A DNA stretch of 32,000 nucleotides from Pantanalinema rosaneae CENA516 (GCF_050753385.1 NZ_JBLZFZ010000032.1:50594-82593), one strand, 5' to 3'; positions 2,242-9,620 are shown, numbered from the stretch's first letter. Translations and numbers: made by a program. The notes: a model not told the origin generated them from the sequence alone.

Positions 2242-3129
2242 ATGAACCGCATTTCCATTGGGAGTAATGCAATGTTGGATGGAGAAACCCTACAACACGA
2301 ACTCGAAAGTGAGCTTGACAACGAGTTTGAATATGAACTGCAAAACGAATATGACATGCAGCATGAATATGAAGGTGAAGAGTTTTTGGGCGGTCTGGTG
2401 GGTGGAGCTATGAACGCTTTGGGATTAGGGGAAGGCGAAGGTGAGTATGAAGGTGAGTACGAAAGTGAAGCCTTTCTTGGAACAGTACGCAAACTCGCCA
2501 GTCGCTTAAAGCAGGTTGTTCCCAAAGTCGCGCCCTATGCTGCCCGCCTGGTTGGGACAGCGATCGGGGGGCCCCAACTGGGTGCCACCTTAGGGCAGGT
2601 GGCGCGGCAGAGTGAGTTTGAATTTGAGTTTGAAACCGTGGGACAACTCGAATTTGAAGGGGAACTAACAGGTGAATTTGAGTTTGAAACCATGCCCCAA
2701 ATGGAAACCCTGGCAGAAGCGTTGGCTGGAGCCGCTACCAAAGTCCAAAACGAAGCGGAAGCCGAAGCCTATATAGGAGCGGCTGTCACCCGAGTGCTAC
2801 CTGCAAAGTCGGTGGCGGTGCAAAAACAGGTTCCGGCGATCGTCAAAGCATCGGCTGAACTAGCTCGGGGTTTACGGAAACATCCGAGTACCCGTCCTCT
2901 AGTGCGGATTCTGCCGACTGTGGCGCAACGGGCTGGACAAGTTCTGGCACAAAAAGCCGCGCAAGGGCAACCCATTACGCGCCCAGTAGTTGCCCAGGTA
3001 ATGGCAACACAAACGCGAAACGCCCTTAAAAGTCCGATCGCAACGGCGCGAATTGTTGCAACTTCAGCGAAAGTGGCACAAAAAATTACCCAACCTGCTC
3101 CTACATCTCGCAGGAAGGTACGGAGTTAA
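2242..3129 (+). CDS. Hypothetical modular protein A1: three acidic (E-aromatic-E)n tracts, each followed by a hydrophobic/cationic segment, then a long basic Ala/Gln/Arg-rich C-terminus
   Basis: Long ORF. The likely true start is ATG 2272 (GGAG 7 nt upstream), which aligns LQHELESELDNEFEYE with the paralog's YQHELEMLDRELESEFE. Tracts include EFEYELQNEYDMQHEYEGEE, EGEGEYEGEYESEA and SEFEFEFETVGQLEFEGELTGEFEFE. It is a paralog of the next gene, sharing EAEAEA-[FY]IG, TRPL[VI]R..PT[VI]A and A[KA]QGQP. Confidence 0.7.
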   Translation: MNRISIGSNAMLDGETLQHELESELDNEFEYELQNEYDMQHEYEGEEFLGGLVGGAMNALGLGEGEGEYEGEYESEAFLGTVRKLASRLKQVVPKVAPYAARLVGTAIGGPQLGATLGQVARQSEFEFEFETVGQLEFEGELTGEFEFETMPQMETLAEALAGAATKVQNEAEAEAYIGAAVTRVLPAKSVAVQKQVPAIVKASAELARGLRKHPSTRPLVRILPTVAQRAGQVLAQKAAQGQPITRPVVAQVMATQTRNALKSPIATARIVATSAKVAQKITQPAPTSRRKVRS

Positions 3130-3190
3130 TTACGACAGTTGAGTGTCACTACGTCCAGATACAACCTATTTACTCAGGAGAAATTCACTC

Positions 3191-4015
3191 ATGTATCAGC
3201 ATGAACTAGAAATGTTAGATCGAGAACTGGAATCGGAATTTGAAACTGGCGTGATGGGAGAAACCGATCGCGAATTTGAATACGAGTACGAGAGCGAAGA
3301 GTTTCTGCCCTTGTTGGCTCCAGTTTTGAAAGCAGCGGCTCCTATGGCAATTCGCGCGATCGGTGGACTGTTTCGGCGGCGGCGTAAGCGGGGTCAGCGA
3401 GAATTTGAACTGGAATTTGAAACCCCGTTACAGGAGTTTGAATTGGAAGGTGAATATGAAGGTGATCCCTTCATTGGTAATCTGCTGCGGACGCTGGGCA
3501 GTGCCGTGGGTGGCGAGGGTGAATTTGAGTTTGAGCAACATCCAGAAGCGATGCCAGAGTTTGAAACTACGCCTGCCAATGAATATGAAGTGACGGCAGA
3601 ACACCTGGCGCACATGGCTGCGAATAGCCAGAGTGAAGCGGAAGCGGAAGCCTTCATTGGTTCACTGATTCCGATGGTGGCGCGGGGCATTAGTGCGGCG
3701 GCTCCGGCGCTAACTCGGATTGCCCCGCAGGTGATTCGACCAATGGCACAGGCAGGGCGGGCGTTATTCCGCAATCCCCGCACTCGTCCGTTAATCCGCA
3801 CCTTTCCGACGATCGCCCGTTCTACTATGTCTACTCTGGCGCGGCAAGCCAAGCAAGGACAACCGCTCAACGATCGAGTGGCGGCTCGGGCAGTGGCTAG
3901 CAATGTGGCTAAGGTATTGGGGAGTCCCCGCCGGACGGCATCTGTGCTGCAACGATCGCGGCAAGTTCACGGTCGGCATTGCTCCTGCGGGGCAAATCAG
4001 CGCCCCCGGTTCTAA
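3191..4015 (+). CDS. Hypothetical modular protein A2, paralog of A1 (acidic EFE tracts alternating with hydrophobic/cationic segments; basic C-terminus)
   Basis: ATG 3191 is preceded by AGGAG 10 nt upstream; the track's GTG 3143 start is less likely. Tracts include ELESEFE, REFEYEYESEE, REFELEFETPLQEFELEGEYEGD and EGEFEFEQHPEAMPEFE. There is a polybasic RRRRKRGQR run. The C-terminal half is collinear with A1. Confidence 0.7.
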   Translation: MYQHELEMLDRELESEFETGVMGETDREFEYEYESEEFLPLLAPVLKAAAPMAIRAIGGLFRRRRKRGQREFELEFETPLQEFELEGEYEGDPFIGNLLRTLGSAVGGEGEFEFEQHPEAMPEFETTPANEYEVTAEHLAHMAANSQSEAEAEAFIGSLIPMVARGISAAAPALTRIAPQVIRPMAQAGRALFRNPRTRPLIRTFPTIARSTMSTLARQAKQGQPLNDRVAARAVASNVAKVLGSPRRTASVLQRSRQVHGRHCSCGANQRPRF

Positions 4016-8318: not shown

Positions 8319-8393
8319 GTGCCGATCGGGTGGGCACTGCCCACCAAGCTTGGATCGCGGTGATGATTCTGTTAGTAGAAGGAAGGCTAGGCA

Positions 8394-9620
8394 ATGAACT
8401 CGGTTTCCACTCAAGCGTTACGGAATGGTTGGGCTGACCTGGAGTTTGAGGATGAGTTAGGACGGCGGGGGCAGGCAGGACGTAACCCGGCACACCGCTT
8501 TGCTGCCCACCTGAAACGGCAGGGATTTTTGCCCACGTTGCATTTCACCCAACGCTTTCTCCAACGTCTGTTAGCGAATGGGGTACGGTTTGACCCCCGC
8601 ACTTTTGTGCAAGAGTTTCGGAATGCCAAACACTATCGCCAAACTCGTCCCGGCTATAACACGCGGTTAGCGGTAGTGCGGGGAGTCCCGATCGTCTACC
8701 GTCCGGGGGGCGAAAATGGTAATCGTGTGGTGCTGGTGACGACGCTGAATCAGGGGGATGCCCTGCCGCCGGTGGTGCGATCGGCTCCTCCCCAACAACG
8801 GGAGGCAGAGTGGGAATTTGAGTTGGCTGACTCGCATTCCTTCGATCGGCGGATTCAGCAGCAGTATGCCGACAAGCTTCAAAAGATGGCGGTGGAACGG
8901 GAGGCGGAGGCGTTTGTGGTAGAAAACCGCTTGCTGAGGATTCCACCGGGGCATGAAACCCTGAATCGGGAGGCGGTACGGGGGTTATCTGTTACTTCTA
9001 CAGAACTGGATGCGATGAATCGAGGGGTGCGGCGGGTAGATACGGAAAAGTTGGCGAACCACTTTAAGCCGGAACAACAACGGCGGCATGTGTTACGGCG
9101 ATATAAGTGTCAACCCTTAGCGGAGGCTTTGGCAGAAGCCCGTCAACAGTTGATCGCGATTTATCACCGGATTATCACGGCTTCGACTCGGGAAGCGGCG
9201 TTTGAATGGCTGGGAGAAGCCTTGCATCTGATTCAGGATTCCTACTCTCCAGCACATACGGCGCGGGAAAACAATGGAGCGGGAGCCATTACGTTTATTC
9301 GCTACTATCGGTTAGATGGGTTGCCCTATCCCCAGGAACATCGAGTGTTACCAATGCGGCAACCCGGTCGGTTAATGCCACTGCCGGTTGATCCACGGGA
9401 TTATATTGATCTGAGCAGTTCACCCACTCGCACAGCGATCGCGGCAAGTCGGCGATTTGTGCAATTGGTGCTGCGGCATCGGCGATCGGTTCCCGGTGGG
9501 ATGTCGGCGGCGGACTGGCAAACTCAACGTCTGGCGGAATTGCGGCAGTTTATGGATACTGTGTTGGTTCTGAGTCCCCGCCAAACTCCAACCAAATCTC
9601 TGTATCCGCGTTGTCCTTAG
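8394..9620 (+). CDS. Hypothetical protein with a C-terminal zinc phospholipase C / P1-nuclease-like H-x3-D-x5-H motif
   Basis: GGAAGG lies ~9 nt upstream of the ATG. The motif LGEALHLIQDSYSPAHTAREN has the same H(+0) D(+4) H(+10) spacing as the metal-binding LHYLGDxxxPMHA segment of bacterial Zn-dependent PLCs. The N-terminal half carries the acidic motifs DLEFEDE, EAEWEFELAD and EREAEAFV, which echo A1/A2. Confidence 0.5.
   Translation: MNSVSTQALRNGWADLEFEDELGRRGQAGRNPAHRFAAHLKRQGFLPTLHFTQRFLQRLLANGVRFDPRTFVQEFRNAKHYRQTRPGYNTRLAVVRGVPIVYRPGGENGNRVVLVTTLNQGDALPPVVRSAPPQQREAEWEFELADSHSFDRRIQQQYADKLQKMAVEREAEAFVVENRLLRIPPGHETLNREAVRGLSVTSTELDAMNRGVRRVDTEKLANHFKPEQQRRHVLRRYKCQPLAEALAEARQQLIAIYHRIITASTREAAFEWLGEALHLIQDSYSPAHTARENNGAGAITFIRYYRLDGLPYPQEHRVLPMRQPGRLMPLPVDPRDYIDLSSSPTRTAIAASRRFVQLVLRHRRSVPGGMSAADWQTQRLAELRQFMDTVLVLSPRQTPTKSLYPRCP

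Follow-up and report, generated by a model that had tools for sequence, protein, structure and literature searches.

A conserved gene cluster without family-level identity

We analysed a 32,000-nucleotide (nt) stretch of the Pantanalinema rosaneae CENA516 genome (NZ_JBLZFZ010000032.1:50594-82593, hereafter the window) and found that six co-directional open reading frames (ORFs) on its plus strand at 2242-9620, here called g1 to g6, belong to a real conserved unit of genes without family-level identity, which is spread over at least ten bacterial phyla together with a GerE/LuxR-family regulator. The cluster contains a putative metalloprotease and a gene position filled by interchangeable enzymes, and several of its products share an acidic-aromatic linear tag. 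We tentatively interpret it as a protease-primed lytic effector module controlled by the regulator, a reading in which our confidence is low and which is weighed against its rivals below. The gene families and the architecture of the cluster are new, and its mechanism may converge on known principles.

ORF calling and reading of the sequence bore out the layout given by an earlier inspection of the window (the original prediction), with gaps of 6-75 nt between the genes (61, 39, 6, 64 and 75 nt from g1 to g6, the first being 13 nt if g2 starts at GTG) and AGGAG-type ribosome-binding sites ahead of the starts at 3191, 4055, 5420 and 7194. The g4, g5 and g6 products were 100% identical to ACN4EK_18490, ACN4EK_18495 and ACN4EK_18500, respectively. 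None of the six proteins had a significant match in Pfam, NCBIfam, PADLOC or PHROGs, in keeping with the earlier statement that they lack family-level identity. Hydropathy and N-terminus inspection of g1-g6 found no segment of transmembrane strength (no 19-residue Kyte-Doolittle mean above 1.6) and no signal-peptide-like N-terminus, and no transporter, secretion machinery or ATPase is encoded among them; the absence of signal peptides and transporters had been predicted.

Gene-neighbourhood conservation had been set beforehand as a test that could refute the original prediction. When 58 related loci with at least 7 kb of sequence upstream of g5 were compared, homologues of g1-g4 were colinear and on the same strand with g5 in 57 of them, so that the refuting outcome did not occur. 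A homologue of the GerE/LuxR regulator was present in 54 of the 58, where it lies upstream and divergent or else downstream on the other strand; the regulator is a conserved member of the cluster, a point that the earlier inspection had missed. Identity to the window copy across loci was 57-91% for g5, 55-86% for g3, 27-73% for g4 and 25-79% for g1 and g2, and between phyla g3 and g5 remained 55-65% identical. The most conserved component, g5, has more than 3288 database relatives, every one annotated as hypothetical, and the best 120 of these were at least 61% identical to the window protein.

We found g5 encoded by about 329 of 185,579 species representatives (one genome per species). The distribution is patchy, covering Cyanobacteria, many Acidobacteriota, Chloroflexota, Planctomycetota, Armatimonadota, Dormibacterota and Actinomycetota, as well as a Deinococcus plasmid (Deinococcota) and Nevskia. 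The cluster was also found on a Paraburkholderia chromid (Pseudomonadota). Most of the hosts live in soil, crusts, mats or peat. In other loci the cluster is flanked by unrelated housekeeping genes. A phage origin was rejected, as neither a set of 50,697 phage records nor IMG/VR contained a g5 homologue. The window has 31 copies of the HIP1 element (GCGATCGC), where 0.93 would be expected; they are distributed along its whole length and also lie in the operon, and all eight copies listed in the original prediction were present. This abundance, operon included, indicates that the cluster has long been resident in this genome, as had been argued. Our literature search found no description of the cluster, or of its acidic-aromatic tag, in any natural system.

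An acidic-aromatic tag in g1, g2, the effectors and g5

The g1 and g2 proteins, predicted to be paralogous acidic/cationic proteins, were indeed paralogues with 36% identity, each having an acidic, aromatic-rich N-half (32-35 Asp/Glu and 15-17 aromatic residues per 150 residues) and a basic, conserved C-half. In the g1 N-half, E-aromatic-E repeats lie around Gly-rich and cationic amphipathic segments, and the cationic segments of both window proteins are bracketed by blocks of charge -4 to -7. The start of g2 is likely ATG 3191 and not GTG 3143, because a ribosome site precedes the former and the N-terminus MYQHELE matches those of homologues.

The same pattern was found across the family. In the N-halves of 117 g1/g2-family ORFs, Glu preceded 65% and followed 64% of the aromatics (n=1640). 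A junction, E-x-E-[EAQG]-[FW]-[FLSI], was present in 96 of the 117, and the 30 residues that follow it had a median net charge of +4. Furthermore, an E-aromatic-E-aromatic-E tag is common to g1, g2, the effectors encoded after g5 (described below) and many g5 C-termini, and it is expanded in effectors of other loci. Outside the core genes the stringent tag occurred in 15 of 2075 ORFs, 11 of which were plus-strand genes directly after g5, and it was never found in g3 or in gX, an additional member of some loci. Its rarity outside the core and its placement after g5 therefore mark the tag as a linear motif that is specific to the cluster and used throughout it. In 29 of 71 g5 orthologues the protein ends in a ...REFEFEV-COOH tail, which the window g5 lacks; the tail occurred only in gX-bearing loci (29/42 with gX versus 0/29 without), an association that is confounded by phylogeny. 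The one related item in the literature found is that synthetic (FE)n peptides tend to assemble into beta-sheets, which pair with strands of cationic sequence (PMC5770463).

We also observed short Cys-rich ends (CxC, CxxC, CCG) in g2-type and not in g1-type paralogues, among them the g2 orthologues of loci L011, L036, L043, L049 and L063, which suggests a metal-binding or modification site in the g2 branch.

g3 is a putative metalloprotease of an undescribed family

The HExxH protein of the original prediction is g3, in which the motif reads HEVAH and is followed by ETFAD, an element that had gone unmentioned. H232, E233, H236, E275 and D279 were invariant in 26 sequences from several phyla, and the feature expected of gluzincins, HExxH together with a conserved downstream Glu as the third zinc ligand, is present. 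A relaxed scan of 26 orthologues gave no consistent Pfam peptidase match even at E<5, and the sequence-profile search found no PDB match. We regard g3 as a putative HExxH...ExxxD gluzincin-type metalloprotease with intact catalytic residues, belonging to an undescribed family. Thermolysin-type gluzincins cleave on the N-side of bulky hydrophobic residues.

g6 and the genes that replace it

In g6, two acidic tags flank an adaptor domain, behind which lies a separate C-terminal domain. The adaptor was 53-69% identical in proteins that carry GIY-YIG, VanY plus PG_binding, Amidase_2 plus PG_binding_1, or OmpA plus DUF4056 C-termini. In other loci the genes after g5 were linked to one another solely by acidic low-complexity segments, and the domains found in this position were PG_binding_1 (5 proteins), OmpA (5), PG_binding_3 (3) and Trypsin (2), in addition to Peptidase_M15, Peptidase_M74, VanY, Amidase_2, Endonuclease_NS_2, GIY-YIG and DUF4056. 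As read from these domains, g6 occupies a polymorphic effector slot, which the earlier inspection had overlooked. No conserved immunity-like small ORF was found after the effectors, the next genes encoding M20 peptidase, Amidohydro_2 or unrelated proteins.

The C-domain of the window effector recurs behind other N-termini, PG_binding_1 among them. Its family shows little or no variation at H187, D216, H232, H278, D282, H288 and E305/H306, which include the H-x3-D-x5-H motif that had been likened to zinc-dependent phospholipase C (Zn-PLC). The His/Asp order, H...D...H...H-x3-D-x5-H...H, and its approximate spacing match those of the ligands of Zn-PLC and P1 nuclease, so that the domain shares its ligand pattern with the Zn-PLC/S1-P1 nuclease/Het-C/VWA7_N superfamily. 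Pfam scores were sub-threshold (VWA7_N in 6 of 17 family members, best E 0.018; Zn_dep_PLPC in 1 of 17, E 0.014), and a profile search of PDB gave no match.

A near-invariant Cys pair, C239 (nt 9108-9110) and C407 (nt 9612-9614), was also noted in the C-domain family; if it forms a disulfide, the domain would work in an oxidising (extracytoplasmic) compartment.

g4, g5 and additional members of the cluster

The AlphaFold2 model of g4 (mean predicted local distance difference test score, pLDDT, 83.8) contains an all-beta sandwich and a long-helix core. A sub-threshold Pfam TTR-52 match (E 0.0025) at the N-terminus, the all-beta model and weak Foldseek matches of the sandwich to C2, PLAT and transthyretin folds agree with the earlier description of this region as prealbumin-like. 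Foldseek searches of g4 against PDB and BFVD returned nothing at E<=1e-3 and no fold match for the core, and a profile search against PDB sequences gave nothing meaningful. Relatives of g4 have SdrD_B, CarboxypepD_reg, SpaA, PKD/TIG, PASTA or PG_binding_1 modules in place of the N-terminal region or in addition to it, and in non-cyanobacterial loci the beta-rich part is often much longer or a separate gene.

The g5 protein is all-helical with many invariant Arg residues; it had no Pfam match, and no PDB match by profile search. Its AlphaFold2 model, built from 29 sequences, was unusable (mean pLDDT 43.8), probably because the family is too uniform. Profile-profile comparison led us to reject a relationship between the g4 core and g5. 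An exhaustive g5 profile search found 1039 representatives, among which a distant group was recognised, consisting of proteins of 500-740 amino acids (aa) in which a g5-like domain stands behind PKD, helix-hairpin-helix or PG_binding modules.

Two operons with such a distant domain (24-25% identity), on Burkholderia pyrrocinia pBPJTT (L084, 3293-19450) and a Tolypothrix sp. PCC 7712 plasmid (L085, 7492-18710), encode an S8 peptidase and many hypothetical proteins, together with either a PG-binding protein or a polyvalent enzyme of 1254 aa (Amidase_2 + C92 + C70). They have neither the tag nor homologues of g1-g4 and therefore represent a different system.

Most non-cyanobacterial loci contain further genes. 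A 187-aa helical protein, gX, is encoded between g3 and g4 exclusively outside the cyanobacteria (L036 6850-7410 and 43 other loci); a hidden copy in the window was considered and rejected, the gene being absent. In the majority of non-cyanobacterial copies, M20 peptidase (46 loci) and Amidohydro_2 (40 loci) genes lie downstream of g5 or of the effector and are 50-77% identical across phyla (for example, L036 11276-13557 and L086 12174-14435). The window has neither enzyme. In Paraburkholderia sp. PGU19, g1, g2, g3, gX, g4, g5, M20, Amidohydro_2 and the regulator stand back to back with no variable gene.

A protease-primed lytic module as the favoured reading

In the reading that we tentatively favour, g1 and g2 would be cytosolic pro-proteins whose membrane-active cationic segments are neutralised by the acidic E-aromatic-E-aromatic-E flanks. 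The same tag flanks the adaptor of the swappable effector, which is g6 in the window and may be an endolysin-like hydrolase, a trypsin-like protease or a nuclease elsewhere. The g4 and g5 proteins would act as a scaffold or receptor, retaining the tagged proteins and controlling the protease. Upon a trigger, g3 would cut inside the tags on the N-side of aromatics, as thermolysin does, so that an E-F-E-F-E run would be cut several times. With the acidic masks destroyed, membrane-permeabilising peptides would be freed and the effector domain would be severed from its adaptor; once the membrane of the producer was permeabilised, the effectors could reach wall, lipid or DNA, amounting to a regulated self-lysis with holin/endolysin-like logic. 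The resulting acidic peptides could be cleared by the M20 exopeptidase. The lack of a transporter, signal peptide or immunity gene fits effectors that are kept inactive inside the cell until processed.

It had originally been proposed that the protease unmasks membrane-active segments, a lipase-like effector, or both. The conserved protease residues, the acid-flanked cationic segments and the effector slot are in line with that part of the proposal, and the PLC-like reading of g6 is likewise reasonable. The framing as a defence system analogous to gasdermin operons found only partial support: neither a PADLOC nor a gasdermin match was obtained, the STAND and CPBP neighbours are not conserved, and the cluster occurs neither in phages nor in defence islands.

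Several observations weigh against regulated self-lysis. None of the proteins has a transmembrane helix, hence there is no classical holin, and g3 and g5 are far better conserved than death or defence modules usually are. Both the surface-binding modules that vary among g4 relatives (SdrD_B, PKD, PASTA, PG_binding) and the g6 Cys pair suggest an extracytoplasmic site of action, which may be on other cells. Effector-less genomes such as that of Paraburkholderia PGU19 carry M20 and Amidohydro_2, whose role this reading explains only loosely, and the tag at the extreme g5 C-terminus has the look of a docking motif more than that of a site to be cleaved. In addition, the g4 and g5 searches yielded no fold or family clue. 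A related framing, possible and in our view doubtful, is that the acidic-aromatic code recruits membrane-active pro-peptides and swappable enzymes to a g4/g5 scaffold, from which the undescribed metalloprotease would release them.

Alternative explanations

The main rival is that the cluster specifies an outward-directed antibacterial toxin complex, in which the core and the tagged effectors would form a particle released by lysis of a subpopulation or by other export. We consider this unlikely, and equally so its particulars, namely that g4 modules would bind target cells, g1/g2 peptides would breach the membrane, effectors would attack wall, lipids or DNA, and the tags would be cargo-loading or docking peptides. 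The effector repertoire does resemble that of type VI secretion systems (T6SS) and polymorphic toxins (amidases, M15/M74/VanY peptidases, nucleases, a lipase-like domain), with a conserved N-terminal adaptor joined to variable C-termini. Furthermore, the g4 N-termini differ in the number and kind of surface-binding modules, PASTA and PG_binding_1 included; OmpA-like and PG-binding domains and the Cys pair in effectors point to extracytoplasmic action; and both the docking-peptide-like C-terminal tag of g5 and the patchy distribution across phyla (about 329 of the 185,579 species representatives) would suit such a complex. However, no immunity gene adjoins the effectors, the cluster is without secretion machinery, ATPase, membrane protein or signal peptide, and some loci lack any effector. 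Pfam, PHROGs, the Foldseek searches of g4 against PDB and BFVD, and the phage and viral collections gave no likeness to a phage tail, sheath or capsid and no feature of an encapsulin, phage-like particle or contractile injection system.

Roles in phage defence or outside conflict appear less likely than the toxin complex. An anti-phage abortive infection system, in which a sensor such as a STAND protein activates the protease to yield pore-forming segments and an active lipase in the manner of gasdermins, would have the usual layout of a protease, masked membrane-active segments and polymorphic effectors without immunity genes, and a STAND NB-ARC-TPR gene does follow the operon in the window. 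We consider it very unlikely, as the adjacency of STAND and CPBP genes is not conserved and the flanks are housekeeping genes; no PADLOC match or gasdermin domain was found; defence genes are not typically as similar between phyla as g3 and g5 are (55-65% identity); and a dedicated transcription factor suggests induced and not standing expression. Improbable as well is a non-conflict role in the maturation or assembly of an envelope-associated or intracellular structure, with g1 and g2 trimmed by g3, M20 and Amidohydro_2. We would give no better prospects to its variant, cell-wall remodelling during a transition brought on by stress or development (desiccation or dormancy, for instance), where the E-aromatic tags would serve beta-strand assembly or docking. 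The very strong purifying selection on g3 and g5, the conservation of M20 and Amidohydro_2 in 46 and 40 loci, the existence of effector-less loci, the dedicated GerE-type regulator, the soil, crust, mat or peat habitats of most hosts and the assembly of (FE)n peptides with cationic strands into beta-sheets (PMC5770463) all speak for such a role. On the other hand, nucleases, trypsin-like proteases and a PLC-like enzyme in the effector slot are hard to square with construction or remodelling, the PDB profile and fold searches revealed neither a shell or filament nor any known structural fold, and the modification enzymes and exporters typical of peptide natural-product pathways are absent.

Comparison with known systems

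Bacterial gasdermin operons pair a dedicated protease with membrane-active proteins held by an inhibitory peptide. The cluster resembles them in having a protease gene with invariant HExxH...ExxxD residues beside proteins whose putative membrane-active segments may be masked, with no secretion signal or immunity gene. It differs from them in several respects: none of the six window proteins has a gasdermin domain by Pfam or PADLOC, and no PADLOC defence model matched g1-g6 below E 0.01; the protease is an undescribed HExxH protein, whereas theirs is caspase-like, CHAT or subtilase; five to nine genes are conserved in place of two, outside defence islands; and masking would be by repeated acidic-aromatic stretches instead of a short C-terminal peptide. 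Polymorphic toxin systems (Zhang, Aravind and colleagues 2012, PMC3482391) likewise combine an N-terminal adaptor with one of many C-terminal toxin domains, the position in the genome being constant. Unlike them, the cluster has no adjacent immunity gene, its partner genes are undescribed, some of its loci are effector-less, and Pfam, NCBIfam and PADLOC found no type V, VI or VII secretion system (T5SS, T6SS, T7SS), PVC or Rhs/YD domain in it.

Phage holin-endolysin cassettes also place signal-less hydrolases (PG_binding_1, VanY, M15, Amidase_2) beside small membrane-active proteins. However, the cluster is without a transmembrane holin, is not phage-borne and has a protease and two large conserved proteins; the window effector is PLC-like and not a peptidoglycan hydrolase, with M15, M74, VanY and Amidase_2 domains occupying the same slot elsewhere. 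The amphibian brevinin/temporin and insect multipeptide precursors offer a further parallel, the likeness lying in cationic amphipathic peptides (for example, FLPLLAPVLKAAAP...) behind acidic pro-pieces, proteolytic release and several units in each. In contrast to these eukaryotic antimicrobial-peptide precursors, the cluster is bacterial and cytosolic and has no signal peptide or dibasic sites, so that the comparison is one of analogy and not of homology.

Significance

Five to nine co-inherited genes that are 55-65% identical between distant phyla, with a core that has no Pfam, NCBIfam, PDB or fold match, constitute a rare and well-defined piece of genomic dark matter. It offers testable handles, namely a protease whose active site does not vary, a tag that is short and linear, and an effector slot with recognisable enzymes, and it occurs in cultured hosts that include Paraburkholderia sp. 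PGU19, Silvibacterium bohemicum, Deinococcus altitudinis and strains of Leptolyngbya and Thermoleptolyngbya. If the favoured interpretation is true, the cluster would be a new protease-gated lysis or toxin system, providing a new bacterial family of membrane-active peptides, a metalloprotease family with a predictable cleavage motif and an effector adaptor domain. If recruitment of tagged clients proves the better description, it would represent a new principle of recruitment and activation and possibly a new route of toxin delivery or programmed lysis, common to bacteria from soils and mats that belong to ten phyla or more. Even with the mechanism wrong, the conserved cluster and its tag merit naming and experiment.

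Features and flanks of the window

The coordinates of the cluster, its motifs and the neighbouring genes are given in Table 1.

Table 1. Positions of the cluster, its sequence features and its neighbours in the window
Feature	Position (nt)	Strand	Residues	Remarks
CPBP/Rce1-like protein	7-1242	+		close to window edge
GerE/LuxR-family regulator	1248-1682	-	144 aa	Pfam GerE E 6.8e-18; divergent from operon
Regulator-g1 intergenic region	1683-2241			559 nt; presumed home of both promoters
g1	2242-3129	+	295 aa	ORF call; homologues in about 68 loci
g1 cationic amphipathic segment	2473-2610		78-123	net charge +7, hydrophobic moment 0.59
g1 basic conserved C-terminal domain			about 150-295	
g2	3191-4015	+	274 aa from ATG 3191	longest ORF from GTG 3143
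g2 cationic amphipathic segment	3308-3397		40-69	FLPLLAPVLKAAAPMAIRAIGGLFRRRRKR; net charge +8, hydrophobic moment 0.53
g2 C-terminal HCSCG motif	3990-4004			
g3	4055-5413	+	452 aa	putative gluzincin-type metalloprotease, undescribed family
g3 HEVAH	4748-4762			
g3 ETFAD	4877-4891			38 residues after HEVAH
g4	5420-7129	+	569 aa	beta-sandwich N-terminus and long-helix core
g4 beta-sandwich	5420-5800		1-127	all-beta in AlphaFold2 model
g4 long-helix core	5945-7069		about 176-550	
g5	7194-8318	+	374 aa	all-helical, Arg-rich
g6	8394-9620	+	408 aa	polymorphic effector
g6 acidic tag LEFEDE	8436-8456		16-21	
g6 adaptor domain	8463-8798		24-135	RGQAGR...HYRQTRPGYNTR...GGENGNRIVLV
g6 tag EAEWEFEL	8802-8825		137-144	
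g6 Zn-PLC/P1-nuclease-like C-domain	8901-9617			
g6 H278-x3-D282-x5-H288	9225-9257		278-288	nearly invariant in C-domain family
Nested G5/C5-rich inverted repeats	9731-9823			CCCCCTTGTCAAGGGGG and partners; 3' of g6, before next ORF
STAND gene	10443-13901	+		NB-ARC and TPR

The region upstream of g1 contained no strong sigma-70 consensus match, and a riboswitch or other RNA leader is not supported there, no Rfam match having been obtained. Downstream of g6, the palindromic element probably marks the end of the transcription unit; its inverted repeats could form a terminator or be a small repeat element. The ORF after it (g7, 9886-10380) was considered as an immunity gene or cluster member and rejected, having no homologue in any related locus.

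The flanking LuxR-type, CPBP and STAND genes were present as originally described, and the remainder of the window is housekeeping (desaturase, PurA, carbonic anhydrase, Na/H exchanger). Co-occurrence of the cluster with STAND or defence genes, which had been raised as a question, was not seen: no homologue of the STAND N-domain was found in 83 related loci, and the flanks elsewhere are housekeeping. One further locus had a CPBP homologue (33% identity), which lies some 5 kb downstream of g5. Coupling of the cluster to STAND or CPBP was rejected, since neither is a conserved neighbour, the closest relatives included.

The CPBP/Rce1-like protein has a soluble N-terminal extension of roughly 260 aa without a family match. 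The STAND protein contains about 15 near-identical 42-aa TPR_12 units, encoded by 126-nt repeats at roughly 11700-13560, which suggests a very recent expansion or homogenisation; the same repeats generate a spurious 622-aa antisense ORF at 11695-13563.

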